DNA from: Synergistaceae bacterium
GTDB taxonomy: Bacteria; Synergistota; Synergistia; Synergistales; Aminobacteriaceae
Direction: 5' to 3'
DNA: 35,839 bases
Assembly: GCA_017447325.1 (NCBI GenBank)
Contig: JAFSNU010000128.1
Span: forward strand, 1 to 35,839
A program made the translations under genes and the position numbers. The notes below the pieces were generated by a model, which made no database searches, had not been told where the DNA came from, and saw only the letters and a list, made by a program, of their open reading frames with translations. Below are positions 1 through 30,981 of this stretch, piece by piece. Within the stretch, counting starts at the first letter, position 1. Every line of letters starts with the position of its first letter.

Positions 1-9
1 GGGAAGAGC

Positions 10-1866
10 GTGACTGTACCAGCTAACTACGCATCGGCGCGAAAAAATCTTGAGAAGTTTTTTGCTTTAAGCCCGGCAGCGATTGATCTTTGCGAGTTCA
101 TGTATCTTATGCAAACGAACTCAAAATTGAGAGAATATTTTGATATATCCCTTAAAATATGGGATAGGGATAAAAAAGATATTCTAGCTTATATTCTCGA
201 TATGAACTCCTCAACGCTGGAACTGGAGGCCTCTGAGCTCAACGTATGCGGAATAACTGAACACATGTGCTGGGAATTTTATTCTAATAAGCTCCTCAGC
301 AGTATGGTCATCTCTCTTTGGGAGGCTACGGGTGCTGACAACATCGATAGATTCTTTTACTCGCCGCTGGAAGGCAATATCCTGCCACTCGAGAAATTCC
401 GTGTTTCAGAAGAGGATTTACGTTACGTCAAGGGGCTTTTAACTTCTAAAAGTGATACTCCTGTTCATATTTTACTTTATGGACCTCCAGGCACGGGTAA
501 GACAACTTTTGCCCGTAGTCTTGCACATGACTTAAAAATTAGGGCATGGAATATTAACAGCGGAGAAAACGACGATGATAGGAACCGCCGTGCAGCTCTC
601 ATCGCCGGTTTGAATATTGCCTGCAAAAAGACTAACGGCTTCGTCTTAGTGGACGAGGCGGAGCGTTTACTGGACACAAGCTGGCACGGCGGAAGTTTTG
701 AGAAAGACAAAGCATGGTTAAACTCTTTATTGGAAAAACCGAAAAATCATGTTATCTGGATTGTAAATCACGCCAGCCATATAGACTCCGCCGTACTGCG
801 TCGCTTCTCATTCAGTGTTAAATTTAATACACTGAACAAACAGGAACGTCATGACATGTGGGAGGACATCATTGACAGACATAATGCAAAAAAGTATTTT
901 ACCGAACCCCAAATAGAAACTCTTGCAGAGAGGCCTAATATATCGGCTGCTGTTATGGAAAAAGCGGTAACTCAGGCAAAAGAACTTGGATACAAGAGCA
1001 AGGAATTTTTACCAGCTGTAGAATGTTCTCTGAACGCTTATTCCGCTCTTGTTAGCCCCATAGAAATAACAAGTAGAACAAAAAGAACTAAAAATACAAT
1101 AAAAACTGAAGCGGCTCAGAATTTTACTCTTGATGGAATTACTGTTGAAGAGTCGATAAGCGACTTGATAGCGCGTTTTCGCCGAGCTGATGAGGTCATG
1201 CGAAACGATAAGCGTAAACTTACCGGAGGCTGCGCTTCATTATTATTCTATGGACCTCCTGGTACAGGAAAGACAGCTTTGGCCAGATATATTGCTCAAG
1301 AACTGGGGCGTAATTGTATAATTCAGCGAGCCAGCGACCTGCTTAGCTGTTATGTAGGCGACACTGAAAAGAAGATTGCTTCAGCCTTTAGCAGGGTAGA
1401 GGAGGAAAATTCCCTGCTTATTATTGACGAAGTAGATTCGTTTTTGTTCTCTCGGAAAATGGCTCAACGTTCCTGGGAGGTTAGCATGGTAAATGAATTT
1501 TTAACAAGGCTTGAAGAGTGCCGGTCATTCTGTATCTGCACAACTAATCGTTTTGAGGATCTGAATGATGCAGCGCTTCGAAGGTTTTCCTACAAAGTGG
1601 CCTTTAAATATGCCCAGCCATCTCAACTTATGGCTTTATATAACGCGTTGCTCTCGCCGTTGTGCGAAGCTCCTTTGCCTGCGGATCTTGAAAAGGAGCT
1701 TAAAAGCTTCTCACATTTGACGCCCGGCGATTTTCGTACTGTATGTACTCAATACGGTTCTCTATTTTCAGATGAGCCATATGTACAACACGATACGTTT
1801 ATCTCAGCGTTACGAAAGGAAGAGGGCCTAAAATCGGGCTTCCTGAGCCGAACAGCCGGATTTTAA
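10..1866 (+). CDS. Tandem AAA+ ATPase with two P-loop modules; possibly 5'-partial
   Basis: Two Walker A motifs (LLYGPPGTGKTTFA and LFYGPPGTGKTALA), each followed by a Walker B (VLVDEAERL and LIIDEVDSF) and an LRRF sensor/arginine motif. The frame is open back to base 1, so the GTG at 10 may not be the true start. TAA stop. Confidence 0.85.
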   Translation: MTVPANYASARKNLEKFFALSPAAIDLCEFMYLMQTNSKLREYFDISLKIWDRDKKDILAYILDMNSSTLELEASELNVCGITEHMCWEFYSNKLLSSMVISLWEATGADNIDRFFYSPLEGNILPLEKFRVSEEDLRYVKGLLTSKSDTPVHILLYGPPGTGKTTFARSLAHDLKIRAWNINSGENDDDRNRRAALIAGLNIACKKTNGFVLVDEAERLLDTSWHGGSFEKDKAWLNSLLEKPKNHVIWIVNHASHIDSAVLRRFSFSVKFNTLNKQERHDMWEDIIDRHNAKKYFTEPQIETLAERPNISAAVMEKAVTQAKELGYKSKEFLPAVECSLNAYSALVSPIEITSRTKRTKNTIKTEAAQNFTLDGITVEESISDLIARFRRADEVMRNDKRKLTGGCASLLFYGPPGTGKTALARYIAQELGRNCIIQRASDLLSCYVGDTEKKIASAFSRVEEENSLLIIDEVDSFLFSRKMAQRSWEVSMVNEFLTRLEECRSFCICTTNRFEDLNDAALRRFSYKVAFKYAQPSQLMALYNALLSPLCEAPLPADLEKELKSFSHLTPGDFRTVCTQYGSLFSDEPYVQHDTFISALRKEEGLKSGFLSRTAGF

Positions 1867-2170
1867 TCTGTGTTACTATCACACTTAATTTATTTACTTT
1901 TATGAACTTTATATATTTATATATAATATATAAGTGATTATATAAGGCTATAGAGGTCACGGGACAATCAGAGCGGAATATAATAGTCGTGATATACGGC
2001 TTTTATATTTCGCCTAAGGTTTATAACAAGGAGTGAGCGGTGAGATTTTTGCTGGAACGCGTGAATATGCGCGGCGAGGTCATGTAAAATGTTTCTATAA
2101 TAAGCTGGCGATCGCCTAATTATGGAACTTTAACCGTTAATCATGATTAAAAAACAGGAGGAAGAATATT

Positions 2171-3019
2171 ATGAATACTCGGGAAAAATTGATAGCTGTA
2201 TTTCAGGACACTCAGAAATTTTACGCGGAAAATAAAATCCTTATTGATGCCGTGAAGTATGGAAAGGAATATACCGCGCTTTATGAAACAGATGATTACT
2301 CTCCTTTACCGCAGTCGTCCGGAGAGCGAGATGGAGAAATTCAGGTTATTAAAGCCAGAAGTTTTGAGGCGGCCATATCCGCACATAAGAGTTTTCCGCA
2401 AAAGAAGATTGCCGTACTTAATTTTGCCAGTGCAACACACCCCGGCGGCGGCGTAAAGCATGGCAGCAGAGCTCAGGAGGAAAGCCTGTGCCGATGCTCG
2501 ACGTTATTCCCTACTATAGACAGAAAATGGCTTTGGGAGAAATATTATAATGTCAATCGAAGCCGTAATGATTGCCGCTACTCTGATGCCTGTATTTATT
2601 CCCCGGGCGTTATCATCTGCAAGACTGATGAATATATCCCAAAGAGAATGGAGCCAGAGGATTTTGTGACGGTTGACGTTATTACCTGCGCGGCGCCAAA
2701 TCTTAGACATGAACCTCTTAACTGGCGTAACTCTGAGACCGGGAAATTAGTGAGAATGAATCCGGGGCAGCTTTACGATCTGCACGTGAAGAGGGTAAAG
2801 CATATTCTGAATGTAGCGGCATCGAACGACGTTGATATTTTAATTCTTGGTGCTTTCGGATGCGGAGCCTTCAAGAACGATCCTTATACTGTCGCGAAAG
2901 CCCATCGTACCGCCCTTGATGAGTATAAAAACAAGTTCGACCGAATTTTATTTGCAATTTATTGCCGAGATTATGAAACGGAGAATTTTAAGGCTTTTAG
3001 TCAGTTTTTTAGTAAATAG
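2171..3019 (+). CDS. PARG-type macrodomain protein (TIGR02452/DUF2263-like); putative (poly)ADP-ribose glycohydrolase
   Basis: NFASATHPGGGVKHGSRAQEESLCRCS matches the PARG signature GGG-X6-8-QEE. A second conserved block is ILGAFGCGAFKNDP. SD AGGAGG lies upstream of the ATG. Confidence 0.8.
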   Translation: MNTREKLIAVFQDTQKFYAENKILIDAVKYGKEYTALYETDDYSPLPQSSGERDGEIQVIKARSFEAAISAHKSFPQKKIAVLNFASATHPGGGVKHGSRAQEESLCRCSTLFPTIDRKWLWEKYYNVNRSRNDCRYSDACIYSPGVIICKTDEYIPKRMEPEDFVTVDVITCAAPNLRHEPLNWRNSETGKLVRMNPGQLYDLHVKRVKHILNVAASNDVDILILGAFGCGAFKNDPYTVAKAHRTALDEYKNKFDRILFAIYCRDYETENFKAFSQFFSK

Positions 3020-3060
3020 TGCGGATACAGATATAAAACCATTTAAGGAGGAATAATAAA

Positions 3061-3837
3061 TTGAACGAGTCTGGAAATTTTATTGTTATAGGATTAGGTG
3101 ACATGGGATGCACTGCTTTGAGTTCAATGCTGGAGCATAGCGTTACCGATTTCAAGTTTGTCGCGGTGAATAATCCTGCTAATGGACTTTCTGAGCTTCA
3201 AAATAACGTCAAGATATGGAAAGCGGAAATGCTTATTTTCGTTGCCGGAATTGAATATTACGCAGAAAATGGAATTATTCATAATTTTATTCGATCTATT
3301 CATGACAACGATATTTTGACGTTAGGGCTTGCCTTTTCCTCTTGCAGTTCACAAGGCGAAGACAACGCCAGAGCATACCTTGACGCGCTTATAACCTTTG
3401 ATAGTACCGATGGGGCAGTACAATGCGTCCAATGTATAGCAAACCTTCTTTTGACTGAGCGAGGAAATAATATCTTTAATGCTGGAATAATTATTATGGA
3501 CTTAGCGGACATCAGAGCCGTTCTGTCTAACGCTGGGACTGCTGTATTTGGAACAGGATATGCCAAAGGAGCCGACAGAATGAGACAGGCCGCAAAAAAA
3601 GCTATTCAATCCACCTTTATAGCGGATTCTCTAAAAAATTTTAATAGAATTCTTATTAATATCACTGCGGGCAGTGATGCCACTCTCGCAGAGATGATTC
3701 CAGCCTTAAAATTTCTCGAAACATTAGCAGCGCCTGACACAAATATTATATGGAATAATGTATTTGCAAAAGAAATTAGGGAAAGCGTTCGAGTGTCAAT
3801 TATCGCGGCAAAGAAAGATGAGCAAGATAGAGTTTAA
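3061..3837 (+). CDS. Truncated, degenerate FtsZ/tubulin-family paralogue; nucleotide-binding motifs lost
   Basis: The C-terminal half aligns by eye to FtsZ: IMDLADIRAVLSNAGTAVFGTGYAKGADRMRQAAKKAIQS, ILINITAGSDATL, PDTNIIW and VRVSIIAA correspond to NVDFADVRTVMSEMGYAMMGSG...RAEEAAEMAISSPLL, VLVNITAG, ATVVIG and LRVTVVATG. T1 GGGGGNA is replaced by GDMGCTA. The T4 GGGTGTG position reads GIEYYAENG, and the T3 region is absent. TTG start sits 9 nt after AAGGAGG and 41 nt after the PARG-like stop. Confidence 0.65.
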   Translation: MNESGNFIVIGLGDMGCTALSSMLEHSVTDFKFVAVNNPANGLSELQNNVKIWKAEMLIFVAGIEYYAENGIIHNFIRSIHDNDILTLGLAFSSCSSQGEDNARAYLDALITFDSTDGAVQCVQCIANLLLTERGNNIFNAGIIIMDLADIRAVLSNAGTAVFGTGYAKGADRMRQAAKKAIQSTFIADSLKNFNRILINITAGSDATLAEMIPALKFLETLAAPDTNIIWNNVFAKEIRESVRVSIIAAKKDEQDRV

Positions 3838-4278
3838 GTCATGAGCTTCGAGTGCGAAAATATATTTAAAACTAACAGCGAGGGATCGTAAGAACTCCTA
3901 CAGTATAACGTTCGTCGAGGCAGTGATACAAGGGGAGACTCCGGCTCTGGTCACAGAATATATTAAGAAATGGGCTGACGTGGACAGCACTGATCGCAGG
4001 CGGGGCGTTGTTCTTATCCCCGCGCTGCGACTTCGCATCGCAATATTGCTATAGAGAAGAGTAAAAGTAAAACTCATCAGAAATATAGGCGTTCAAAACT
4101 GGATAGTATTTTCAGCACATAGGGAATATTGAGTTTGAGGTTAGAAGCTGTGGATCAAAATGCAAATTATTCATAAAAAACTTTGGCAAAACTCCTTTAT
4201 AAATTAATTAAATTATTATAATTACTTTTAATAATTTAAATTTTTAAATTTCTATATTTCTATTAAATAATATTTTTT

Positions 4279-4701
4279 CTAAAAATTGTCTCTTGTTTCG
4301 TACATAGTAACTGCTTCTTTCGCTTTAAGCAAAAGATCGGGAGCGAGCTCTGATGAGTCCGCCCCTCTCTCAAACAGCAGTTTGATGATAGGCGCTTCAC
4401 GTTCGAGTTCGTCAGAAGATACTGCATACATAAGCGCAGTCCAGCCTTCGCTGTCCTTTGCGTTCACGTCAGCCCCGCAGTCCAATAAGGCATTTACGAC
4501 ATCGAAAACGTTTGAGCGTAACAACGTCATATTCTTAAACTCCTTATCATCAATTAAACCCAAAATAGACAACAAAATTTCTAATTCTACTATGTCGCCT
4601 GACGCTGCCAACATCAAAAGGGTTGTTCCATCGTCACTTTTTGCCGTGTTGACATCTATATTGCGGCTCTTGAAAAATTCCACAATTTCATCTTTTGTCA
4701 T
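4279..4701 (-). CDS. Ankyrin-repeat protein
   Basis: Ankyrin consensus blocks GTTLLMLAASGD, LLDCGADVNAKDSEGWTALMYAV and LLFERGADS. It is the lone minus-strand gene in this block. Confidence 0.8.
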   Translation of the reverse strand: MTKDEIVEFFKSRNIDVNTAKSDDGTTLLMLAASGDIVELEILLSILGLIDDKEFKNMTLLRSNVFDVVNALLDCGADVNAKDSEGWTALMYAVSSDELEREAPIIKLLFERGADSSELAPDLLLKAKEAVTMYETRDNF

Positions 4702-4965: not shown

Positions 4966-6222
4966 TTGATGACAGACTGGGCTACACTGAACAAGGACGA
5001 GAACAAGGAGCTTTTGAAGCTATTCAACGATATTACTTGCGGCGAAAGCAGCACGTGTGCGCCGATTTTGCGAGAGGCTATTTTAAATCCCAATAAAGGG
5101 AGCATTTCCCGTTTAAGCTTAACAAGAACAGGCAAAAAATTTGAAGCTTTTCACAATGGATGTTGGGACTTTGTACATTATCAGCGCAAGCTATATAATT
5201 TTGATGCAAATGAGTTTAAAAGTGAAGGCTTCGTTATTGGCAGCCCTTGGCATGGGGATGTCCTGGAAGCACCCATTCTCTTCTTGAGTTCAAATCCGGC
5301 GATTACCCCTTATTGTCTTTTCCCGCGCTGGCATCCGGATAAAGATCCCCAAAAAGATAGCTTCTCTCTTGGCGGGACTTTAGGCAAAGTCGAACTGAAT
5401 TGTAAAGACGACGATGGTGATACTATTAGAAAATATAAAAATTCTATTTCGCAAGAAGATATTTATGACTTTTTCACGAATCGTTTTCAAGAGTCTCCGT
5501 CATTTATAGACCATGATGGCAAAGGCACAGCAGTCTTTAGCGTATGGGTTAGAGATGACAACAATCCTGCAAACTTCGTAAGAAGAAATGATGCTGTCAG
5601 CTATTGGCGAGGTATGCGCGATGTTATGCGCCTTTTATTGAATGGAGTTAAAGGAAATACTGTACCTTTCCAAGAAGATGAGTTGTGTGCTTTAATGCGG
5701 CCGGTTCTGAGTGCTGAGTTTGTGCCTTTTGGTTCGATGAACGAATATGGGCTAAATGATGAATTGATGAGTTATTACTGGGAAAATTTTGCATGGCCGC
5801 TTTTAAAAAATTGTGGCGCGAAGATTATTTTTTTGGTAGGCAAGTACGTCAGGGAAGCTTTTTTGAAGGCTGTACTTCAGGAGAAATATAAGAAGAAAGA
5901 TGATGATGATGATCCACTAAACTTAAACGGTAAAGTTTTGGATGTTGACGATTTTATTGCAAAAATTGAAAAAAATAAAAATAATAAAATTGTCAACGGA
6001 TATAAAGATTGGCTTAAAAATCACTGCATAGTCTTCATCAATAACCTCGGAGGGCGGGCACCAAAAAATTATGAGGCTGCTGTCGAATCATTGAGGACGA
6101 TGAACGATCCAATTATACAGGCAGCCTTACAGGGAGCTCGGGATCAGTACAAAAAAGCCTTAGAGGAAGCTAAAAAACGCAAAGAAGCCGAGACACAAAA
6201 ATCTAATAAGACCGAAAATTAA
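4966..6222 (+). CDS. Hypothetical 418-aa protein with a Lys/Glu-rich C-terminal tail; weak UDG-superfamily-like motifs
   Basis: Long ORF with an AAAGGAG SD and a hairpin terminator directly downstream. APILFLSSNPAITP resembles the MUG/UDG motif hhhhG(I/L)NPG. The late block IVFINNLGGRAP might correspond to UDG motif B. The fold assignment is speculative. Confidence 0.6.
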   Translation: MMTDWATLNKDENKELLKLFNDITCGESSTCAPILREAILNPNKGSISRLSLTRTGKKFEAFHNGCWDFVHYQRKLYNFDANEFKSEGFVIGSPWHGDVLEAPILFLSSNPAITPYCLFPRWHPDKDPQKDSFSLGGTLGKVELNCKDDDGDTIRKYKNSISQEDIYDFFTNRFQESPSFIDHDGKGTAVFSVWVRDDNNPANFVRRNDAVSYWRGMRDVMRLLLNGVKGNTVPFQEDELCALMRPVLSAEFVPFGSMNEYGLNDELMSYYWENFAWPLLKNCGAKIIFLVGKYVREAFLKAVLQEKYKKKDDDDDPLNLNGKVLDVDDFIAKIEKNKNNKIVNGYKDWLKNHCIVFINNLGGRAPKNYEAAVESLRTMNDPIIQAALQGARDQYKKALEEAKKRKEAETQKSNKTEN

Positions 6223-6332: not shown

Positions 6333-7043
6333 ATGGACGATAAGGCCGTATTAGAAAAATTTCTGAATTTTAATTTGGACTCAGCCGAAAACGTTTTGGC
6401 CGAGTTTGCCCGTCTGGATAATGCCAGGTATCAAGGCAGCACACACCCGTTGGAGAGTTTTGTTTATATCCCCGGCAGCAGGGAAGATCGGGTTTTACTG
6501 GTTGCACATGCTGATACAGTTTTTGGCAATCAGGGCAAGCATAAGATTATATTTGAGGACGGAAAATATAAAAGCGGCGAGCCTGACGTTGGCATAGGAG
6601 CGGACGACAGAGCCGGCTGCGCTATACTTTATCTGCTTAAAGATATGGGACACTCGCTTCTAATTACAAACGGCGAGGAACTTCACTGCCTCGGCTCTTA
6701 TGCAATTAAAGATTTCTATCCTGAATTATATGCTGAACTAAACGAGCACCAGTATATTATCCAGTTTGACCGGCAGAGAAGCCATGATTATAAAGTCTAT
6801 AACATTCCAGTAAGTTTGGAATTTAAGAATTTTATCGAGAAAAACACTGGCTACAGCGAACCGGACAAACGCTCCAATACAGATATTACTGTTCTGTGCA
6901 ACAAGATATGCGGCGTTAATCTGAGCATTGGCTATTATAGAGAGCATAAGCATGATGAATATCTTGTCTATGATGAGTGGAAACATACTCTTGATATAGC
7001 CAGAAAGATGCTCGAGGGCAAGCAGCCGAAATTTCCCTTGTAG
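6333..7043 (+). CDS. Compact M28/M42/M20-like Zn metallopeptidase-fold protein
   Basis: Metal-ligand pattern in the expected order: LVAHADTVF (HxD), GIGADDRAGCAIL (bridging Asp), NGEELHCLGS (EE) and a late His cluster REHKHDEY. GGAG SD before the ATG. Confidence 0.55.
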   Translation: MDDKAVLEKFLNFNLDSAENVLAEFARLDNARYQGSTHPLESFVYIPGSREDRVLLVAHADTVFGNQGKHKIIFEDGKYKSGEPDVGIGADDRAGCAILYLLKDMGHSLLITNGEELHCLGSYAIKDFYPELYAELNEHQYIIQFDRQRSHDYKVYNIPVSLEFKNFIEKNTGYSEPDKRSNTDITVLCNKICGVNLSIGYYREHKHDEYLVYDEWKHTLDIARKMLEGKQPKFPL

Positions 7044-7190: not shown

Positions 7191-8576
7191 TTGAACGAGC
7201 TACAACGCATGTATGAGCGTGAAGACTTTCAGCTCTTTATTCTTTATGGCCGGAGGCGCGTAGGGAAGACAAGCCTGTTAAAGGAGTTCTGCAATAACAA
7301 GAATTCGCTTTTCTTCTCCGCTGAACTTAACAGCAGCAGGGCAAATCTTGAAAAATTTTCTCAGAGAATCTTTCAGCATTACGGTGATCCTCGAGAAGAG
7401 CCTTTCGTCTCATGGGAGAGTGCGTTTCTCTATATTAATAATAGGCAGATGACAACGCGGCTTGTTCTAGTGATCGACGAATTTCCATATCTTGCGGAAA
7501 GTACTCCATCGCTTTTATCCGAACTTCAAAACGTCATTGACCATCATCTTCAGGAGAGCGGACTGTTTCTTATTCTCTGCGGCAGTTATATGGGATTCAT
7601 GGAGAAAGAAGTTCTTGGATCAAAAAGCCCTTTGTTCGGAAGACGTACAGGACAAATGCACCTGAAACCCTTTGACTACAGGACGAGCGCGGAGTTTATG
7701 GAAGGCTTCAGGATTGAAGAAAAATTCATGCTTTACGGCGCGTTTGGCGGTACTCCAATGTATTTAAGGCAAATCGACAGAGAAAAATCATTTAAAGAAA
7801 ATATCGTCAATTCTTTCCTGTTTCCTACAAGTTATCTTTACGAGGAGCCAGTCTTTCTTCTCCGTGAAGAAGTTCAACAGCCTGGAGTCTATAACTCGAT
7901 TATTGAGGCTATTGCCAGCGGCGCGTCAAAGGCCAGCGAAATTTCCTCCAAAACAGGAGAGGAGACCGCTAAATGCTTGAAATATATTAAGACCCTGCGC
8001 GACCTCGGTATTCTCTATAAAGAAGTTCCATTCGGAGAGAAAGACTCTTCGCGTCGGACGCTGTACGGCATATCAGATTTCCTGTTTCGTTTCTGGTATC
8101 GCTATGTGTTCAGCAACAGGACGCTTCTTGAAACGGACGCTCAGGAAATTGTCTGGCAACGCAAAATCGAGCCTGACTACAGTACTTATATGGGGCTTGT
8201 CTTTGAGCAGATATGCCGTGAATACCTTTTGCATCAGAACAGCGCAGGTAAACTTCCCATACTTTTTACTAAAATAGGACGTTGGTGGGGAACGGACGCA
8301 AAGTCTAAACGGCAGATAGAAATCGACCTGATAGCACAGGACGGAAAGGACACTATTTTCTGCGAGTGCAAGTGGCGGAACGTTCCGGCAGATATAAACA
8401 TGTTCAGGACGCTATGCGACAGAGCAGAGCTATTCATGTCAAATAAGGACGATAAAGGTCATATAGGATTTATAATCTTCTCAAAAAATGGCTTCACAGA
8501 TGACATCCTGAATGAAGCCAAAAGACGGGGAGATTTATTGCTTATTGGCCTTGCGGATCTTTTTAATAATAATTAA
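7191..8576 (+). CDS. Arch_ATPase/ORC-like P-loop ATPase fused to a DUF234-type PD-(D/E)XK nuclease-like C-terminus
   Basis: Walker A ILYGRRRVGKTSLL and Walker B LVIDEFPYL. The C-terminus IGRWWG...IEIDLIAQDG...IFCECKWRN carries a D...ExK nuclease-like motif. TTG start. Confidence 0.8.
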   Translation: MNELQRMYEREDFQLFILYGRRRVGKTSLLKEFCNNKNSLFFSAELNSSRANLEKFSQRIFQHYGDPREEPFVSWESAFLYINNRQMTTRLVLVIDEFPYLAESTPSLLSELQNVIDHHLQESGLFLILCGSYMGFMEKEVLGSKSPLFGRRTGQMHLKPFDYRTSAEFMEGFRIEEKFMLYGAFGGTPMYLRQIDREKSFKENIVNSFLFPTSYLYEEPVFLLREEVQQPGVYNSIIEAIASGASKASEISSKTGEETAKCLKYIKTLRDLGILYKEVPFGEKDSSRRTLYGISDFLFRFWYRYVFSNRTLLETDAQEIVWQRKIEPDYSTYMGLVFEQICREYLLHQNSAGKLPILFTKIGRWWGTDAKSKRQIEIDLIAQDGKDTIFCECKWRNVPADINMFRTLCDRAELFMSNKDDKGHIGFIIFSKNGFTDDILNEAKRRGDLLLIGLADLFNNN

Positions 8577-8915: not shown

Positions 8916-9833
8916 ATGAATTGGAGCAGTGTTCAGAAATACCGCAAAGATATCGTGAAAGATTTACGTGAAGCGCTCGAAAGAGGCGTAGCACCTTGGC
9001 AGAAACCATGGAGCGAAGTTGAGGACGGAATGCCGCGAAACGCACTTACGGGACATTTCTACAGCGGCAATAACGCTTGCAGGCTTTATTTGAAACAGCA
9101 GCTGATGCACTATACTGATCCCCGATGGCTCACGTACCGCCAGGCGCAAGGGATGAAGAGGGATATAAAAACAAAACTCGGAGAAGTTGGGACGTATATT
9201 TGGGTCTGCGTAGACGCCGATCGCAAGCAATACATACCGCACGTAGTTTTCAATGCCCAACAATTTGATGGTTTAACGTGTTTAAAGCCCTATGTCCCCA
9301 AAGTAGAGAAACGCGCGCCAGTTGAAAAGAGATGTGATAAGGCCGAAAGGATTTTACGTGAATCAGGAGCAAGAATCTTGTACGGAGGCAACAGAGCTTA
9401 TTATTCACCTTTAGACGATTATATAAAGATGCCTATGCTTAGGAGTTTCGACACCTCAGCTGATTATTATGCAACAGTACTTCATGAATTAGCACACTGG
9501 ACAGGACACGAAACCAGACTCAATCGTGATCTTTCCGGCTGTTACGGTACAAAATCATATGCTTTTGAAGAACTTGTTGCTGAAATAAGCTCAATGTTCG
9601 TCTCTGCTGAAACAGGAATAGACCAAACCAAAGAACATTTTGACAACCATGCGTCATATGTAAATTCATGGCTGGAAGTCATCGGTAAAGACGATGAGGT
9701 ATTGTTCGGTGCGGTTGGACTTGCGCATGAGGCAGCGGAGGAAATTTTGAAGCATGAACGTAAACGAGAAAGCAAGAATATTTCAGAAACGTCATATCTT
9801 TTGCGTTATTGGGATCCTTCCAGTATTTTTTAG
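8916..9833 (+). CDS. ardC: ArdC-type antirestriction protein: N-terminal ssDNA-binding domain plus C-terminal HExxH metalloprotease
   Basis: N-terminal APWQKPW motif. C-terminal LHELAHWTGH (HExxH) and YAFEELVAEISSMF. GGAGG SD before the ATG. Confidence 0.85.
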   Translation: MNWSSVQKYRKDIVKDLREALERGVAPWQKPWSEVEDGMPRNALTGHFYSGNNACRLYLKQQLMHYTDPRWLTYRQAQGMKRDIKTKLGEVGTYIWVCVDADRKQYIPHVVFNAQQFDGLTCLKPYVPKVEKRAPVEKRCDKAERILRESGARILYGGNRAYYSPLDDYIKMPMLRSFDTSADYYATVLHELAHWTGHETRLNRDLSGCYGTKSYAFEELVAEISSMFVSAETGIDQTKEHFDNHASYVNSWLEVIGKDDEVLFGAVGLAHEAAEEILKHERKRESKNISETSYLLRYWDPSSIF

Positions 9834-10200: not shown

Positions 10201-10830
10201 ATGTTAGACAGGTTAGAGATAAGAGGAAAGGTAAACACAGCAATTTTTGCTACTCTAAGGTTGTTGAAGATAAGGCCATAGAACAGATATGCCGCATGTG
10301 CGACTACCCTTGCACCAAGGGCAGGGCTCGAACATACGCATCATGCCCGACGTTCATGCCGGAAAAGGCTGTACATAGGCACAACTATGAGGCTTATCGA
10401 TAAAGCAGTCCAGAACATCATAGGGGTCGATTTAGGATATGGAATCTACACGGTGAATTTAGAGCGTGACAAGATTGATTTTGAGAAGCTGGACGAGGCC
10501 GCTCATGCTGGCGAAAAAGTGTTAATACCAGTCAATATGAAGGATGGTTCTGTACTCGCTATAGGCAGGAGAAATGCTGATTGGAACTATTCTGCGTCAC
10601 ACGGAGCCGGATGCATTATGTCCAGAAGCTCTGCAAAAGAGAAGTTGAGCATGGAGGAATATCGCATGACGATGGAGGGTATTTACACGACCTCTGTCAA
10701 CGAAAGTACGCTGGACGAAGCTCCGATGGCGTATAAATCTCTGGATGATATTATAGACGTAATTTCTTAAACTGTGGATGTAGTTGACGTCATGAAACCT
10801 GTTTATAACTTCAAGGCATCCTATAATAGC
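10201..10830 (+). pseudogene. rtcB: RtcB RNA ligase remnant with frameshifts, an internal deletion and an in-frame TAA
   Basis: RtcB-like blocks are spread over different frames: LEIRGKVNTAIFA; VVEDKAIEQICRMCDYP; MPDVHAGKGCTIGTTM (read across frames); IGVDLGYG. The C-terminal part reads LIPVNMKDGSVLAIGRRNADWNYSASHGAGCIMSR...EGIYTTSV..STLDEAPMAYKSLDDII, then TAA (10768-10770), then TVDVVDVMKPVYNFKA. Total length is roughly half of a normal rtcB. Confidence 0.7.
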
Positions 10831-13966: not shown

Positions 13967-16892
13967 TTGAGAGACAAAAAAGATGAGATAGTCTCAACAA
14001 ATCCAGTTATGTCCGATCATCTTAAAATCAACTATCGAATTATTGACGATAAACTCGGATTTGCCGGAGCGAAGACAAAGTTCTCACGCAATATTGATAT
14101 TATATGCACTCTGAAAACTATCGAGAAAGAGAACAGACTGGCTAATCTTCAAGAACAGGAAATTTTATCGAAGTATGTTGGGTGGGGAGTTTTACCGCAG
14201 GCATTCGATGAGCATAATGAGGTATGGCATCGTGAATATAGCGAGTTAAAAAGAGTTCTGACCAACGAAGAATACAAGGCCGCGCGAAGTTCTACTGTAA
14301 ATGCTCACTATATCTTGCCTACGATTGCTCGAGCCATGTTTGATGCTTTAGAACGTATGGGGTTTTCAAAGGGCAACATTCTTGAACCATCTTGCGGCAA
14401 AGGAAACTTCTTCGGTGTTCTTCATGAGAGTATGAAAAATTCCAAACTATACGGCGTGGAGCTTGACAGTATAACAGGACGGATTGCCAGACAGCTCTAT
14501 CAAACAGCGGATATCGCCATTAAATGATATGAAAATACTCATTTCTACGATAATTGTTTTGACGTCGCGATTGGTAATGTCCCATTTGGGAATTATAAGG
14601 TTGTTGATGCCGAACACAAGTACGACAGGGATAATTTCAGAATACACGATTATTTCTTTGCCAAAACGCTGGACAAGGTACGCCCCGGAGGCATTATCGC
14701 CTTTATCACATCTAAAGTAACTCTTGACAAGTCAAACCACTCTGTCCGCCAATATCTGGCGCATAGAGCTGATTTATTAGGAGCGGTGCGCCTTCCCAGT
14801 GACGCATTTAAGGATAACGCTGGGACGGAAGTAACAACGGATATTATTTTTCTTCAAAAACGGGATTATCTTATAGACGATATTCAACTTGAATGGCTGA
14901 ATATCGCGCCAAACCGTAATGGAATACCTATTAATAACTATTTTGTACATCATCCTGAGATAGTTTTGGGAACGATAATTCAAGAGTCCAAGCTTTATCA
15001 TGGCAACGAAAAAGAGACATTGTGTAAACCTTTTAAGGGAGGCAATCTTGATGAAAAGCTCAGGACAGCATTAGGGCATATACATGGACAGATTACAAAC
15101 AAAGGAATTCAGACAAATGGGACATTGGCAGATACAATTCCAGCCGATTCCAACGTGCGTAACTTCAGTTATACTCTTATAGATGGAAAACTATATTATA
15201 GAGAAAATTCCGTAATGTATACGCCTGATCTTTCAATATCGGATATGGCTCGCGCAAAAGGAATGGTAGAATTAAGAGACTCTTGCCGGTCTGTTATTGA
15301 TGCACAGATCGCAGGAGATGATGACGAGAAGTTACATACTTTTCAAAATCAGCTTAATGATATCTACGATTGTTTTGTCTCCAGTTATGGCCGTGTCAAT
15401 GATGCTGTTAATGCGCGGGCTTTTAATGAGGACAGTTCTTACTACTTGCTATGCGCTCTTGAAAACATGGATGAGAACGGACGCTTTATCGATAAGTCTG
15501 ATATGTTTACTAAGAGGACTATCCGTCAAAGCAAAATTCCAAATTATGTAAATAACGTTCAGGAGGCTTTGTTATTATCAGTCTCAGAAAAAGCCCGTGT
15601 ATATATGTCTTCATTGACCGGAATGACTGAGAAAAAACTGATCCAAAACCTCAAAGGCGAGATATTCAGGCTTCCATCTGACGGCGAAGCAGCCGTATAT
15701 TTAACGGCGGACGAATATTTGTCCGGCAACGTCCGTGAAAAACTGGAGATTGCCCTAATATACGCCGAACAAGAGCCTCAACTTTACGAGAGCAACGTCG
15801 AGGCTCTTGAAAAAGTACAGCCTGTTCCATTAACAGCAACTGATATTGATGCTCGTTTAGGCGCTATATGGATTGTCCCAAAGTACATTCAAGATTTTAT
15901 CTATGAGCTTTTGCAAACGCCTGATTATATCAAACATATAATAGAGGTCAGCTATTCTCAAGTAACTTCTATGTGGAATATATCAGGAAAATCGGTCGAT
16001 TCTGGTAATGTTTTAGCAAACACAACCTATGGTACTTCTGAATATAAACGCTTATAAAATTATCGAAGAAACTTTAAACCTTAAAACGGTAAAAATATTC
16101 AGAAACGAAAAAGACGCTGACGGGAAATATAAGCACGTTCTCGACACAGAGGTCACAGCAATAGCCCAGCAGAAGCAGGATGAGATTAAACAAAAATTCA
16201 GGGAATGGATTTTTGAGGATTCTGATCGGCGGTGTGTGCTTATTGAAGAATATAGTAAGCGTTTCAATTCTACCCGAGCACGGGAGTATGACGGAAGTCA
16301 TCCGCACTTTGAAGCTATTAACCCTGATATTCATCTTAGAGAGCATCAGAAAGACGCTATTGCCAGTATTTTATATGGCGGGAACACTTTACTTGCACAT
16401 GAGGTTGGAGCTGGTAAAACTTACGAGATGGTAGCTGCGGCAATTGAGGGGAAACGTTTATGATTATCTCATAAAAGCCTTTTTGTAGTTTCTAATCATC
16501 TGACAGGGCAGATGGCTGCTGAGACGCTAAAGCTATATCCGGGTGCTAATATCCTTGTCGCCACAAGGAAAGACTTTGAAACCCGTAATCGTAAGAAGTT
16601 CTGTGCGAGGATTGCTACAGGCGATTATGATGCGATTATAATTGGGCATAGTCAATTTGAAAAAATCCCGGTATCAAGGAAACGTCAAGAATGCTTTATT
16701 CAGGAGCAGATTGACGAGATTACAGATGGAATTAAAGAATTACGACGGCCATTTCCTCAAGCGGAAGAACTCAGAGAAAAATCCGCGCGTCTGGCAAGGC
16801 TCAATATCGAGTTAACAATGCCTGAGCAACAAAACGCAGCCTCCAAAACGTCAACGGATAATTCTGATGATGATATGGTCACTACACTTTAA
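13967..16892 (+). pseudogene. Giant conjugative-element N6-adenine DNA methyltransferase/SNF2-type helicase, degraded by 2 in-frame TGA codons, 1 frameshift and a large internal deletion
   Basis: MTase motif I ILEPSCGKGNFFG and motif IV AIGNVPFGNYKV, followed by IHDYFFAKTLDKVRPGGIIAFITSK. Helicase motif I LLAHEVGAGKTYEM. TGA at 14525-14527 and 16461-16463 with the frame otherwise continuous. A frameshift near 16035-16045 separates TTYGTS from NINAYKIIEETLNL. After DAIIIGHSQFEKIP...QIDEITDGIKEL the sequence jumps to a C-terminal-type tail and stops, so the helicase C-domain is missing. The 5' end may also be decayed (13618-13966). Confidence 0.85.
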
Positions 16893-20768: not shown

Positions 20769-21437
20769 TTGTTAATAGACACCGATGCACAATGTAATAG
20801 TACTGGATTTTACGAGGCTAAAACAAAAGGAGAGGCGACTATTTTAGACATATTTTGCGGAGATATGTCGGCCAGCGAGTGCGTTCAGCATACGTGTAAA
20901 GTGGATATTATACCTTCCGATAAATTGCTTGCAGATGCGGAAAATATGGTGAAAGTTGATGAACGTCGATTTACGCACCTGAAACGCTCGTTAAAGTCCG
21001 TTGATAAACTCTATAACTATATCATCATGGACACGCTCCCAGCGATCGGCGTTGCTCTTAAAAATGTTTTAGGCGTAGCTCAATTTGTCATAATTCTTGT
21101 CGAGGAATCAGGTTGTGCTCTTGATGGTCTTATGGATTTTGCAAACGCTCTTGAACTTGCTAAAGATAACAATGACGAGTTGACAGTAGCAGGAATTCTC
21201 ATAGTAAGGGCAAAGGATCGAACAAGAAAATCAAAGAGAATGAGAGAGTTGGCAGATACTATTGCCGAAAAGTTAGGGACAAAACAATTTCAGACGAGAA
21301 TTCGTGAAAGCGTAGTCTTCGCAGAGGCTTTAACTGAATACTATGTACCGCTTTCCGAATATGCACAGAACAGCACGACAAATAAAGACTATAAAGCATT
21401 TGTTGATGAACTCATAGAGGTGATTCGTAATGGCTAA
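20769..21437 (+). pseudogene. parA: ParA/Soj-family partition ATPase lacking the N-terminal Walker A segment
   Basis: Starts at LIDTDAQCNST (the A' motif). Walker B is YIIMDTLPA and the C-terminal half is ParA-like. The roughly 40 aa carrying KGGxGK(T/S) are absent and replaced by pure AT-rich sequence. Confidence 0.7.
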
Positions 21438-24701: not shown

Positions 24702-24754
24702 ATATACATCTTTTTGAAAGAAAAATCAAGTTGAGAAAAAGGAGACAAATTTTA

Positions 24755-26044
24755 ATGAGCGATAATCAAGAGTTTTATTTAATTAATGCTTTTGCTGATG
24801 CCGTCGGTATCGCTGCCCAGAATTTAAGAAGATTAGACAGGCGCGGGGTTTTTAAGCCTCATCATGTAGATGAAAAAGGTCGCCGTTATTATTCGCGCGA
24901 ACAAATCGCAGAAGTTGAGAAAATAAGAGACAAAATTAATCCGCGCAAAATCACCCCACCTGTTGAACTCCGTGAACGTTTAGGATATGGGCGAAAAGAT
25001 ATAAGCAAAGTTGTCGGCTGCGGGATTGAAAATTATGAAAGAGGAATAACTAATCCTTCGTTAGAATTTATCGAGGATTTAACTAAAATCTATGAAGTCC
25101 CCTTCGCGGAAGTGCAAACTGCTTTTGACGCCGTGCGTAAGCCGTCAACCCGCAAGACGGATTTTGAAAATGCAAAAGCCGAAGTCATGCCTAACAGATG
25201 GGACAAAGAGACAATGACTGAGCCGATGCGTATTCGTAACGAGGCAGGGTTCACGCGTCCGTTTGTCTGCGATTTATTAGATTTAACCGAACACACATTA
25301 TTTGGGTATGAAAAAGGAGATATCCCCGTCACGCTTGAAGTTATCGAGGCGTTGACAAAAATATATGATGTCTCTTTTATAGTTTTGCAAAAGGCCTTTG
25401 ACAGTCTGCGCGATTCGCAAGAGGGCAAGAAAAATTTTAATAATATTATCGCGGTACAAAGTCAAGGCGTGTCAACGCCCGCTGAGCTGCGCTTTCAATC
25501 GAAGTTGACAGCTAATCAAATTAGCGAGGCCTTGGAAATAACGTTGGCTGCATTGACGAGATATGAAAATGGTTCTTGGCCTGTCCCCTTAAAAGTTGCA
25601 GAAGATATGGCAGCTTTATATAACATATCGATTAATGAAATAAGAAAAATATTCGCGCCTCTCAGTAAGATGCCGGAATTAGAAGATGTGAAATATCTTG
25701 ACAGGGTAAGCATTTGGGAGAAGAGCATTACTCAGCCCATGGCTTTACGTCAAAGAATAGGTTTTTCCCGCCAGCAAGTTTATAAATTTATTGGCGTCGG
25801 ACACGCAGCCCTTACGCGTTATGAAAAAGGCGAGAGCGAGATACCTTTAGATGTTGCGGAAGATTTAGCAAAATTATATAATGTTACTATAGATGAGATA
25901 AGAAAAGTTTTCGCGTCTGTCCGTCGGCCTCGTCAACGTAAGCCGAATTTTGATTTATTAACAAATATCCGCCGGAAAGATTTTAAAAAATTAACGGAGG
26001 AGTTTCGGCAAAAATACAAACAAACGACAAACAATGATTTTTAA
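24755..26044 (+). CDS. Multi-HTH DNA-binding protein: an N-terminal MerR-type HTH plus four tandem XRE-like HTH repeats
   Basis: The MerR-like N-terminus is YLINAFADAVGIAAQNLRRLDRRGVFKP...GRRYYSREQI. Four repeats of about 85-90 aa follow the pattern (E/A)LR...G(F/Y)(S/T)R...(L/I)...YE(K/R/N)G...P(S/V/L)...(I/A)E(D/A)L(T/A)K(I/L)Y(E/D/N)V...E(V/I)(Q/R)K(A/V/I)F. The track start (TTG at 24731) is probably too early; the ATG at 24755 follows AGGAG. Confidence 0.75.
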   Translation: MSDNQEFYLINAFADAVGIAAQNLRRLDRRGVFKPHHVDEKGRRYYSREQIAEVEKIRDKINPRKITPPVELRERLGYGRKDISKVVGCGIENYERGITNPSLEFIEDLTKIYEVPFAEVQTAFDAVRKPSTRKTDFENAKAEVMPNRWDKETMTEPMRIRNEAGFTRPFVCDLLDLTEHTLFGYEKGDIPVTLEVIEALTKIYDVSFIVLQKAFDSLRDSQEGKKNFNNIIAVQSQGVSTPAELRFQSKLTANQISEALEITLAALTRYENGSWPVPLKVAEDMAALYNISINEIRKIFAPLSKMPELEDVKYLDRVSIWEKSITQPMALRQRIGFSRQQVYKFIGVGHAALTRYEKGESEIPLDVAEDLAKLYNVTIDEIRKVFASVRRPRQRKPNFDLLTNIRRKDFKKLTEEFRQKYKQTTNNDF

Positions 26045-26207
26045 ATTATATAAAATTATATAAAAGATAAAACCCCGTATGCTTTACTGTAGGCCTAAAA
26101 ATTCTTTAATATTACAAATCCTTTATTATTGGGATTGACAAAATCATTTGGTACCCGTTGGGACCATACCATAGCTTTATAAAATTTAAATTAAAACATA
26201 AAATTAC

Positions 26208-26240
26208 AAAACACCCTGAGAATAGGTGTTTTTATTTTAT
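26208..26240 (+). terminator. Rho-independent terminator candidate
   Basis: AAAACACC (26208-26215) pairs with GGTGTTTT (26225-26232) around a 9-nt loop, followed by a T-rich tail. Confidence 0.5.
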
Positions 26241-26283
26241 AATTTACAAGATTAACGTCATAAAATTTATTTAATTCAACAAA

Positions 26284-26329
26284 AAATTTCCCGCAGAATT
26301 TTAAATTAATAAAATCTTACGGGAAATTT
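26284..26329 (-). terminator. Hairpin downstream of flgI; possible flagellar-operon terminator, bidirectional in form
   Basis: 10-bp stem AAATTTCCCG (26284-26293) with CGGGAAATTT (26320-26329). An A-run lies on one flank and a T-run on the other. The loop is long (26 nt). Confidence 0.4.
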
Positions 26330-26446
26330 TAATTTTCATCACAAGCTCGTGCTTTGTTATTTTTAAATTATTCGGCTTGTATTGTATAAGCGCATTATAA
26401 ACAAAACGAAGCGCGGGATAAAATATAAAAGTTTGTCGCGGCTCTG

Positions 26447-27571
26447 CTACATGTTCACGAGTTCGCCGTGCAGAGCTCCGGCCTGATTAATCGCCTGCAA
26501 GATCTCGATTATATCGCGAGGACTTGCGCCTAATGAGTTAAGCACTCTCACCATGTCGCGCACTGTCGTCGTCGAGGGCATCGCTACCATGCTCGTGCCG
26601 TCCTCTTCTGTGCGAACATCTGTTCTGTGCACGACGGCAGTCTGGCCTTGAGAAAATCCCTCGGGCTGAATGACGTTCGGATCGTCTGCAACTGTAACCG
26701 TCAAATTTCCATGAGCGACTGCAACAGAACTAATTCTAACGTTGCCGCCCATGACGACAGTGCCAGTGCGCTCATTAACTGCAACTTTAGCCGAGCTGTC
26801 AGGCTCTATCTCCAATTTCTCCATGTTCGCAATAAACGCAGTCGGCGCAGCTATGTACTGCCCGGGCAAATTTATATCAACGCGCCCCGCGTCACTCGCC
26901 GTTGCTACAGCTCCGAAACGTCGATTTATTGCGTCGGCAATGCGCTGCGCTGTTGTAAAATCAGGATCGCGTAATAATAAAGCTAATTGTCCGCCCTCCG
27001 CGTATTCCATAGGCACATCACGCTCAACTATTGCTCCGCCCGGGATGCGCCCGTTAGTCGGAATATTTATCGTCCGTGACGCGCCCGCTCCGCCGGCTGT
27101 AAATCCTCCGACTAAGACCGAACCCTGAGCGACTGCGTAAACATTTCCGTCGGCTGCTTTAAGCGGCGACTGCATTAAAGTTCCGCCCTGCAAACTCGAC
27201 GCGTTGCCTATCGAACTAACTCTAACGTCAATAGGCTGGCCGGGCCTCGCGTAAGGCGGCAAGTCAGCAGTCAAAGACACGACCGCTATATTGCGCGTCC
27301 TTACTGAACGAGCATCAAGCGTCACGCCGAAATTACGCATTAAATTTCTCATCATCTGAACGGCCATCTGCGAGTTGTCGCCCGTTCCGTTTAAGCCGGT
27401 GACTAATCCAATTCCAGTAAGCTGGTTATTCCTCGCGCCCTCTATATCAACTATATCTTTAATTCTAACTCTGGGATTAAGCCGCGAATAATTCATGTCC
27501 TGCAAGTTCACAGCCGCGAACGCCTGCGAGCTTATTAAAATTAAAATTAAAACTAAATAAATTTTGCGCAT
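26447..27571 (-). CDS. flgI: Flagellar P-ring protein FlgI
   Basis: Signal peptide, then RIKDIVDIEGARNNQLTGIGLVTGLNGTGD and the C-terminus LNSLGASPRDIIEILQAINQAGALHGELV, both typical of FlgI. Confidence 0.95.
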   Translation of the reverse strand: MRKIYLVLILILISSQAFAAVNLQDMNYSRLNPRVRIKDIVDIEGARNNQLTGIGLVTGLNGTGDNSQMAVQMMRNLMRNFGVTLDARSVRTRNIAVVSLTADLPPYARPGQPIDVRVSSIGNASSLQGGTLMQSPLKAADGNVYAVAQGSVLVGGFTAGGAGASRTINIPTNGRIPGGAIVERDVPMEYAEGGQLALLLRDPDFTTAQRIADAINRRFGAVATASDAGRVDINLPGQYIAAPTAFIANMEKLEIEPDSSAKVAVNERTGTVVMGGNVRISSVAVAHGNLTVTVADDPNVIQPEGFSQGQTAVVHRTDVRTEEDGTSMVAMPSTTTVRDMVRVLNSLGASPRDIIEILQAINQAGALHGELVNM

Positions 27572-27574
27572 GAT

Positions 27575-28147: not shown

Positions 28148-28203
28148 AAATCAATCATCGCCTCCAGAAATAATTTTAAATTAATTTTAAATTTAATTTA
28201 AAT

Positions 28204-30031: not shown

Positions 30032-30065
30032 TTTTATTTAACTCCTCCCATTTATATAGCTTAAA

Positions 30066-30872: not shown

Positions 30873-30981
30873 AGTCTCACCCTTTTCTCAATTAATTATA
30901 TTTCTAAAATTTTAAATGCGCTTAATTAAACATACTTCCAAAATATTATTCGGATAAATTTAATTTAAAAATTAAAAATTA

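Follow-up and report, generated by a model that had tools for sequence, protein, structure and literature searches.

A putative FtsZ pseudo-enzyme encoded beside an AAA+ ATPase and a WYL regulator in a recurrent Synergistota gene cassette

Introduction

What is a shortened homologue of the cell division protein FtsZ doing in an accessory island, next to genes for an AAA+ ATPase and a PARG-type ADP-ribose hydrolase? The question is raised by the left end of contig JAFSNU010000128.1 from a Synergistaceae bacterium (assembly GCA_017447325.1), which was analysed over its whole length of 35,839 nt, referred to here as the window. The initial annotation of this stretch saw three intact genes on one strand, took the hydrolase and the FtsZ-like protein (FtsZl) for a functional pair that might protect FtsZ from ADP-ribosylation or arrest division reversibly, and knew of no described system with this combination of genes. 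The last point holds, in that neither the literature searches nor the PADLOC models yielded a system that combines an AAA+ ATPase, a PARG and an FtsZ-like protein.

Two results are presented here. The first concerns the cassette of AAA+ gene, FtsZl gene and WYL/WCX-domain regulator, joined in some loci by a PDDEXK_4 nuclease or by ankyrin repeats: judged by its gene order across genomes, it is a real, recurrent gene set around a predicted cytoskeletal pseudo-enzyme, and apparently one not previously described. The second is that the pairing of PARG with FtsZl is, on the same comparison of loci, a local accident or add-on. Throughout, L numbers denote the loci compared and P numbers the homologous proteins found.

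Results and Discussion

An FtsZ homologue without its GTP-binding loops

FtsZl, a putative GTPase-dead FtsZ mimic of 258 aa, is encoded at window 3061..3837 on the plus strand, and its TTG start is preceded at a distance of 8 nt by an AAGGAGG ribosome-binding site (3046..3052, plus strand). Searches with hidden Markov models (HMMs) bore out its identification as an FtsZ homologue, as they did that of the double Walker-A AAA+ ATPase and the PARG upstream. It matches FtsZ_C (E=1.1e-17; 64.5 bits on PF12327, with a cutoff of 27), and solved FtsZ structures align to its residues 138-253 (E about 1e-20), with a weak N-terminal match over residues 9-51; on the FtsZ equivalog model TIGR00065 it scores 83.5 bits, below the cutoff of 295.2. 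The expected FtsZ fold was also recovered by structure prediction. An AlphaFold2 (AF2) model, built from a 79-sequence alignment that is biased toward true FtsZ, had a predicted local distance difference test score (pLDDT) of 86.3 and a predicted template modelling score (pTM) of 0.86, and Foldseek matched it over both domains to the FtsZ of Mycobacterium tuberculosis, Staphylococcus aureus and Escherichia coli (TM 0.78-0.81, query-normalised).

The nucleotide-binding loops were compared by alignment with E. coli FtsZ and related housekeeping FtsZs. FtsZl has a degenerate T1/G1 loop (GDMGCT) and a deletion of T2/T3, reads IEYYAEN in place of the tubulin signature GGGTGTG at T4, and has lost T5 and T6; a protein with this predicted sequence cannot have a canonical GTP site. 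From helix H7 on it is well conserved, with both T7 aspartates kept (IMDLAD) and the asparagine lost, and it ends 6 residues past the last strand, with no linker and no FtsA/ZipA-binding peptide. The same protein is found, identical, on 14 contigs.

A ParA-like gene at window 20769-21437, and an integrase gene that adjoins an FtsZl-ankyrin gene in L091-92 with a ParA gene two genes beyond, might be taken as signs that FtsZl serves to segregate plasmids or elements, as a cytoskeleton of the TubZ/PhuZ type. We find this scarcely credible. With all GTP-binding loops gone, dynamic filaments are implausible, and C-domain-only members of the family exist; moreover, phage TubZ/PhuZ-type proteins match the FtsZl model far more weakly than cellular FtsZ does (TM 0.46-0.66, identity <=12%).

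The FtsZl family and its origin

Word-indexed protein searches with FtsZl alone and with the family alignment returned only its own cluster and P0007. Because such an index lacks the sensitivity that this family calls for, 1.84 billion representative proteins were instead searched exhaustively with HMMER. The best relative scored 108 bits, and five similarly degenerate proteins were retrieved (P0003, P0007, P0008, P0009 and P0030), while further members came from metagenome and genome loci (two copies each in L037 and L075, and one each in L071 and L073). The G-box is present in no member of the family, and the motifs NLDFED and IIWGHVID are kept in most. Two members consist of the C-domain only (P0003 and the first L075 copy), and three are fused to ankyrin repeats (P0009/P0275, a 427-aa L037 protein and an 883-aa L071 protein). 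In members at 30-42% identity the open reading frames (ORFs) are intact and the C-terminal subdomain is strongly conserved.

The IIWGHVID motif also marks full-length FtsZs with intact motifs. One of these is encoded in a murC-murB-ftsA-ftsZ cluster, the setting of a housekeeping FtsZ as opposed to the accessory island that holds FtsZl, and several share their metagenome assembly with a Fretibacterium metagenome-assembled genome (MAG). In a neighbour-joining tree of the C-domain, ten degenerate members form one clade, with the IIWGHVID housekeeping clade as the nearest branch of real FtsZ; the raw-score margin for the nearest FtsZ type is small (97 vs 89 bits). Derivation of FtsZl from a Synergistota-type FtsZ is consistent with this pattern rather than proven by it. 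None of the PADLOC and PHROG models matches FtsZl. The plasmid collection gave zero DNA matches, and tblastn against it yielded ordinary ftsZ genes; a scan of viral contigs with the FtsZl alignment found one FtsZ homologue, a 425-aa ORF taken as an ordinary ftsZ although its motifs were not checked.

Another family of short FtsZ-like proteins, a very divergent one, was seen in L054-L065 (242-270 aa, no G-box, T7 motif NLDIEDV), outside Pfam recognition. Its genes, such as L059:4102-4836 and L057:7691-8440, lie in an islet between cysK and the rib operon of an AT-rich lineage, where their partners are a PDDEXK_4 gene (L059, L065) or a RelB-type antitoxin gene (L057).

A tandem AAA+ ATPase and its divergent regulator

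The window is a complete public contig whose left end falls inside the AAA+ gene, leaving the 3' 621 codons (window 1..1866, with the ORF at 10..1866, plus strand). The three genes do have the positions and the common strand given to them in the initial annotation, but they are not all intact: the deposited AAA+ product is a 621-aa partial, and full-length copies of 756 aa occur on 12 other assemblies. The features of the three genes are no product of chance. Beyond the left edge of the window fall about 135 N-terminal residues and a divergently transcribed WYL/WCX regulator, which is followed, upstream of the full-length gene, by DnaB-like, primase-polymerase-like and SSB genes. In L001 the WYL and AAA+ genes are separated by 306 nt.

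The product is a tandem (type II) ATPase of the classic clade, with two AAA domains (PF00004, E=2.8e-45 over two stretches), Walker A GPPGTGKT in both, Walker B VDEAE and IDEVD, and in the second domain (D2) a YVG pore-loop motif within SCYVGDTEKK. Among solved proteins it is closest to VAT, Cdc48 and p97 and matches spastin less well, and CdvC is its second NCBIfam match. The D2 domain also resembles the ATPase IetA (PADLOC 1.8e-45 over residues 486-742; NCBIfam 2.8e-39); the score on the IetA equivalog NF042959 is 135.3 bits, from D2 only, against a cutoff of 510. No IetS-type serine protease was found in the window, L001, L037 or L068-L081, and the only peptidase near the AAA+ gene is an M28-like metalloenzyme 4.5 kb downstream. 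A genome scan placed homologues (53-60% identical to the C-terminal fragment) in MAGs of Fretibacterium and Synergistaceae, with goat, sheep or reindeer in the labels of several, and a scan of viral contigs with the AAA+ fragment returned zero matches.

Two other arrangements of such genes were encountered. A Deltaproteobacteria MAG carries four or five consecutive tandem AAA+ paralogues (L080:2197-10510; three full-length after two shorter ORFs), and in a Pseudomonadota MAG a 1125-aa protein with RNase H-like and superfamily 1 (SF1) helicase parts is encoded between the AAA+ and WYL genes, in the place of FtsZl (L077:10752-14126). The latter arrangement suggests that the AAA+/WYL pair hosts exchangeable cargo genes.

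Recurrence of the cassette

Homologues of the AAA+ protein (44-60% identity) occur in ten Synergistota loci, and in six of the ten FtsZl lies close by: the window element, L037 (two copies), L070 (a remnant), L071, L073 and L075 (two copies). FtsZl is downstream of the AAA+ gene in the window element, L037, L073 and L075, and in L071 the 883-aa FtsZl-ankyrin gene is two genes away. Only L069 is clearly without FtsZl, the contig edge being 0.2-1.9 kb from the AAA+ gene in L072, L074 and L068. This adjacency is found in at least five independent genomic contexts. What had been proposed as one module of three genes is recurrent in part, the AAA+ gene being found with FtsZl in independent genomes and the PARG-FtsZl pair not.

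A WYL/WCX regulator adjoins in nine loci (the window element, L037, L071, L073, L074, L076, L077, L079 and L081), of which four are outside Synergistota and without FtsZl. The PDDEXK_4 nuclease, which matches PADLOC candidate PDC-S26 (7.5e-59), is present in L037, L070, L071 and L073, with L070 holding only remnants of it and of FtsZl. An unrelated 195-aa gene follows the AAA+ gene in L037, L070 and L072, in the place that PARG has in the window, and in L037 and L070 it separates AAA+ from FtsZl. The genes of the cassette lie close together between housekeeping genes in L071, L073 and L075, forming a compact islet, which in L073 comprises four genes. FtsZl genes also stand alone, with no candidate effector, in L057, L062, L063, L091 and L095, and in L091 the FtsZl-ankyrin gene has GmrSD, Fic and HipA genes beside it.

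These neighbours raise the possibility of a decoy-sensor immune system, in which FtsZl would bait phage or plasmid inhibitors or modifiers of FtsZ, the AAA+ protein would read out the event, PDDEXK_4 or other cargo would execute the response, and the WYL regulator would set expression. We regard this as possible, if doubtful. It would explain the partner genes and the defence-island context better than the capping model set out below: the D2 domain matches the anti-phage ATPase IetA, the nuclease matches a PADLOC candidate, WYL regulators count among defence-associated genes, the cassette forms an islet between housekeeping genes, and defence-type genes lie nearby (PDC-S27 in the window; GmrSD, Fic and HipA in L091). 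FtsZl also diverges faster (about 30-40% identity) than AAA+ (about 45-50%), and its repeated fusion to ankyrin repeats is as seen in variable sensor modules. The five loci with lone FtsZl genes, however, suit an autonomous effector better, FtsZl has no match among the PADLOC models, and membership of the IetA family is not supported, with 135 bits against 510 and no IetS protease.

It would be a further step, and in our judgement an unlikely one, to see FtsZl as an integrated decoy that guards the Z-ring. Bait-bound FtsZl would then be unfolded by the Cdc48-like AAA+ protein, licensing the PD-(D/E)XK nuclease or other cargo, among which PARG, the M28-like peptidase and the ankyrin modules would be counted. 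If true, this would constitute a new prokaryotic immune class acting by cytoskeletal mimicry, so far confined to Synergistota and matched to their FtsZ type.

A capping model for FtsZl

The reading that we favour, tentatively, is that the window carries one variant of a mobile stress or conflict cassette in which FtsZl caps or titrates host FtsZ and the AAA+ protein remodels the resulting complex. In FtsZ filaments, the T7 loop of one subunit enters the nucleotide pocket of its neighbour. The core of the cassette would be the Cdc48/VAT-like tandem AAA+ protein, FtsZl and the WYL/WCX regulator, with PDDEXK_4 and ankyrin modules often added. A DNA-damage or invader signal would lead the WYL regulator to turn the cassette on. 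FtsZl, predicted to have neither GTP binding nor a tether, would retain the T7-loop (bottom) polymerisation face of host-type FtsZ and would dock through it onto host FtsZ, at the nucleotide face of subunits or filament ends; its dead face would take no further subunit, leaving FtsZ capped or titrated. Z-ring assembly would be poisoned or titrated in this way, with division arrest or toxicity as the outcome, and the AAA+ protein, as a pore-loop unfoldase, would assemble or load, reset or extract the FtsZl-FtsZ complex. PARG would stand outside this core, as a self-sufficient ADP-ribose remover from a second module that has merged in.

Because stand-alone FtsZl genes exist, FtsZl can be expected to have an action of its own, and a role as effector or modulator is thereby more likely than one as a sensor only. 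WYL activators induce division inhibitors after DNA damage, as in DriD-didA (PMC9186387, PMC4211646) and DdaA-aciT (PMC13010146), and division in Agrobacterium is blocked when a truncated FtsZ paralogue is overexpressed (bioRxiv 10.1101/2025.09.29.679267).

Several points weigh against capping. We infer the binding of FtsZl to FtsZ from sequence and fold, and FtsZl carries an 8-residue insertion just ahead of the T7 loop as well as a substitution of Asn207 (E. coli numbering), which together could weaken the proposed interface. The fold itself was modelled on an alignment composed mostly of true FtsZ, and a 3-sequence alignment gave an AF2 pLDDT of 38. A division block has no obvious need for an AAA+ protein or a nuclease, and the role of the nuclease is left unexplained, while these two partners and the defence neighbours (PDC-S27, GmrSD, Fic and HipA) fit sensor-effector immunity at least as well. 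Co-transcription of PARG with FtsZl, which is probable, leaves room for a local functional link. Finally, about 10 AAA+ loci and about 12 FtsZl lineages make a small sample, and every one of them comes from metagenomes.

The PARG gene and its own module

The gene at window 2171..3019 (plus strand) encodes a PARG of the microbial type (DUF2263/TIGR02452), scoring above the curated HMM cutoffs with 122.3 bits on PF10021 (cutoff 23.5) and 172.1 bits on TIGR02452 (cutoff 50). Its translation contains HPGGGVKHGSRAQEE and a GAFGCGAF loop; the GGG-X7-QEE catalytic signature (PGGGVKHGSRAQEE) and the diphosphate-binding loop LGAFGCGAF are both intact, and the enzyme accordingly looks catalytically intact. 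We take a GGG-X6-8-QEE signature and a macrodomain diphosphate loop to be the markers of the family. Bacterial PARGs are able, without partners, to protect against a toxin that ADP-ribosylates RNA, from which they strip ribose-linked ADP-ribose (PMC11833690). The window enzyme would most likely guard against ADP-ribosylating toxins or defences that hit nucleic acids or proteins.

Upstream of PARG lies an AT-rich spacer of 304 nt (window 1867..2170, plus strand), close to the 300 nt first reported, within which are the Shine-Dalgarno site of PARG and, at 1985-2001, a weak hairpin; because of this spacer and its hairpin, the AAA+ gene and the PARG-FtsZl pair may be separate transcripts. The PARG stop is 41 nt from the FtsZl start, and no terminator-like hairpin lies between them. 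This gap and its AAGGAGG site are as the initial annotation had them, and the co-transcription of PARG and FtsZl that it proposed is probable.

This proximity is what gave the two genes the look of a portable hydrolase/decoy pair against Tre1-like toxins, or of a division-arrest effector with its own reversal enzyme. Probable co-transcription over 41 nt without a terminator, a PARG that looks catalytically intact and the ability of bacterial PARGs to serve as stand-alone immunity enzymes (PMC11833690) all speak for such a pair, which we nevertheless judge very improbable. The hydrolase and the supposed decoy are not conserved neighbours: the pair is unique to the window element, none of the other FtsZl or AAA+ loci examined has a PARG, and the 195-aa gene takes the place of PARG in L037, L070 and L072. 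The analogy with Tre1/Tri1 also breaks down on both hydrolase chemistry and target residue. Tre1 modifies Arg174 of FtsZ, and Tri1, a DraG-like arginine-ADP-ribose hydrolase, reverses the modification (PMC8120803), whereas PARG-type enzymes act on ribose-ribose or 2'-OH linkages (PMC11833690); the window hydrolase has no DraG/ARH-family match and is of the PARG type instead. The T6-H7 segment that holds Arg174 is deleted in FtsZl and in most members of its family. In addition, no ADP-ribosyltransferase (ART) gene was detected among the ORFs of the window or L001, where small or divergent ARTs could escape detection.

PARG appears instead to belong with other genes. Its closest homologue (68% identity) follows, in L082-85, a WYL gene 62% identical to the regulator of the window element, and this WYL-PARG module has neither AAA+ nor FtsZl. 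Beside it, in L082, L083 and L085, is a 38% homologue of a 418-aa protein that is also encoded in the window, and L082 has an ankyrin gene as well. Two further PARG homologues lie in unrelated gene contexts, and none of the three closest homologues examined has an FtsZ-like neighbour. Two recurrent modules seem to have merged in the window, one of AAA+, FtsZl (with or without ankyrin) and WYL, the other of WYL, PARG, the 418-aa protein and ankyrin. Genes of the FtsZl type should not be labelled 'cell division protein FtsZ', and a coupling of PARG to FtsZ should not be inferred from one locus.

The PARG family is very large, with 7482 members at E<=1e-20 among 8000 scored candidates. Its long homologues (404-437 aa) were considered as possible FtsZ-like fusions and rejected, no such fusion being present. 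Among P0204, P0207, P0211-P0213, P0222 and P0242, some are fused to Epsilon-antitoxin (PF08998) or DUF1810 (PF08837) domains, which hints at toxin-antitoxin-like roles in the family.

Genes downstream of FtsZl

Directly after FtsZl, in another frame, is the remnant of an ankyrin-repeat ORF (window 3845..4051, plus strand; BLASTP to an L011 ankyrin protein 43% over 37 aa, E=1.3e-4), probably the relic of an FtsZl-ankyrin fusion or gene pair. A 140-aa ankyrin-repeat protein is encoded convergently with FtsZl at 4279..4701 on the minus strand, and ankyrin genes or fusions go with FtsZl in L011, L037, L071 and L091 as well.

The 418-aa protein is encoded at window 4966..6222 (plus strand), and its homologue in L082 at 2062-3219 (minus strand). 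It has no match in Pfam, NCBIfam, PHROGs or the PDB sequences and a weak PADLOC match to KwaB (E=0.0016); its strongly conserved blocks include GSPWHGDV.EAPILFLSSNP and VPFGS. The idea that it is a divergent PDDEXK_4 was rejected (hhalign probability 0.3%). It is followed by the 236-aa M28-like metallopeptidase (window 6333..7043, plus strand), which has the HxD, GADD, GEE and H motifs expected of metal ligands. This gene is 65% identical to one in L011 whose start overlaps the end of FtsZl by one base, FtsZl being flanked there by ankyrin genes and the M28-like peptidase. M28-like homologues (31-38% identity) were also met on viral contigs of 44-193 kb, five of which reach 165 kb or more, with no FtsZl nearby.

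The island and its boundary

GC content is about 40% across the left 26 kb of the window and 45-51% in the right part, where flgI, flgH and flgA begin on the minus strand as GC rises (about 26000-32000). The boundary between island and chromosome is likely to lie in this interval. The flgI product of the window is recorded on 12 contigs, the longest being a 46.5-kb contig that also bears the island, and the junction is on this ground no assembly chimera. The window has no tRNA gene to mark an integration site, and the ORFs scanned, which reach to 29.3 kb, include no identified integrase. Close to the boundary is the gene for a 437-aa protein that combines a MerR-type helix-turn-helix (HTH) domain with three or four Xre-type HTH_3 domains (24731-26044, plus strand).

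The left 26 kb carries, in addition to the ParA-like ATPase gene, genes for both defence and anti-defence. An ATPase_2/DUF234 protein matching PADLOC candidate PDC-S27 (5.9e-60) is encoded at 7191-8576 (plus strand), with an ArdC-type antirestriction gene just after it (8916-9833), so that genes of the two kinds stand side by side. An RtcB RNA ligase fragment at 10387-10770 (plus strand) is a 127-aa ORF covering the C-terminal quarter only (profile positions 314-406 of 426). At 13967-16463 (plus strand), two ORFs of 186 and 423 aa match successive parts of the DarB-like antirestriction model PHROG 10089 (3.3e-53 and 4.9e-78), and the interval looks like one broken giant gene; a third, overlapping ORF of 144 aa there has weak helicase-domain matches only. 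A PcfM-domain gene is present in the matching loci L001-L005. On this gene content, the element is best classed as a degenerate mobile or accessory island within the chromosome.

Degeneracy of this kind invites the question of whether there is a functional module at all, or only a mosaic of accessory genes in decay that a degenerate mobile element carries, with FtsZl a degrading FtsZ duplicate and its neighbours incidental. The broken genes just described (the DarB-like and RtcB fragments and the ankyrin remnant) fit such an account, as do the resemblance of the locus to a fusion of two modules and the reduction of FtsZl and PDDEXK_4 to remnants in L070. We consider it improbable all the same. 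Proteins that have diverged to 30-42% identity keep intact ORFs and a conserved C-terminal subdomain, the family is monophyletic and spread over many loci, FtsZl is identical on 14 contigs, and adjacency to AAA+ persists in at least five independent contexts despite the extreme rarity of the family.

Comparison with known systems

If FtsZl acts on FtsZ as the capping model proposes, this would be a first case, among described mobile elements and defence islets, of the use of a pseudo-enzyme copy of the division protein itself; the literature searches turned up no FtsZ-like component of a described defence or mobile-element system except phage TubZ/PhuZ. FtsZl would also be a natural one-faced FtsZ, minimal in its C-domain-only versions, and useful for studies of filament polarity and treadmilling. 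Its WYL, AAA+ and PDDEXK_4 context offers a candidate partner for PDC-S26 and for the IetA-like ATPase, neither of which could be assigned to a characterised system in this analysis.

For the PARG, the known enzymes of the bacterial type (T. curvata PARG, SCO0909 and DRB0099) act alone, as protective or repair enzymes in their published descriptions, and the window enzyme is distinct from them solely by its position between AAA+ and FtsZl genes. As in Tre1/Tri1, FtsZ is here tied to ADP-ribose metabolism in a setting of conflict; unlike Tri1, which also plugs the toxin, the window enzyme is a PARG-type macrodomain with no ART nearby and in a pair that is not conserved.

IetAS is resembled in the D2 domain, for which IetA is the best PADLOC and NCBIfam match, and in a context like that of a defence island. 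It differs in that the AAA+ protein of the window element is a 756-aa tandem with an extra N-domain, and in its partners, which are FtsZl, WYL and PDDEXK_4. The FtsZl-1 and FtsZl-2 families of Makarova & Koonin 2010 share a name with our protein and have as their context genes for a vWA protein and a distinct GTPase, together with members of the OmpA family (PMC2875224); no such gene was found in any of our FtsZl loci.

A classic-clade AAA+ protein with a YVG pore loop, encoded by a gene near that of a tubulin/FtsZ-fold protein, calls to mind spastin and katanin with tubulin, Vps4/CdvC with ESCRT-III, and ClpX with FtsZ, and the pairing of a Cdc48-like ATPase with FtsZl recalls the severing of tubulin by spastin and katanin. 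The window AAA+ protein, unlike those remodelers, is a type II tandem closest to VAT/Cdc48, and the likeness is one of analogy only.

Sub-stoichiometric capping or sequestration of FtsZ, as proposed for FtsZl, would align it with SulA, MciZ, Kil and CbtA/YeeV, inhibitors and toxins of which some come from toxin-antitoxin or prophage genes. To our knowledge none of these is an FtsZ homologue, whereas FtsZl would work by homotypic mimicry of one longitudinal face.

The regulatory side of the cassette has its nearest counterparts in DriD-DidA of Caulobacter and DdaA-AciT of Acinetobacter, where, as here, a WYL regulator lies by, or controls, a predicted division-blocking gene. DidA and AciT are small proteins not known to be related to FtsZ, while the candidate inhibitor in our case is an FtsZ pseudo-enzyme, the cassette is mobile and WYL control is putative. 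In both known systems single-stranded DNA or DNA damage is the signal (PMC9186387, PMC4211646, PMC13010146).

The truncated FtsZ paralogues of Hyphomicrobiales, such as Agrobacterium FtsZ1, are also among the closest known counterparts of FtsZl, being extra FtsZ copies without the C-terminal linker and tether peptide. They are treated as duplications of the FtsZ GTPase and as ancient paralogues of their lineage, and FtsZ1 inhibits division on overexpression, the behaviour proposed for FtsZl (bioRxiv 10.1101/2025.09.29.679267). FtsZl differs from them in having lost loops T2-T6, and in some members the whole N-domain, in its frequent fusion to ankyrin repeats, and in its setting, which is that of mobile islets shared with an AAA+ ATPase, a WYL regulator and a nuclease.

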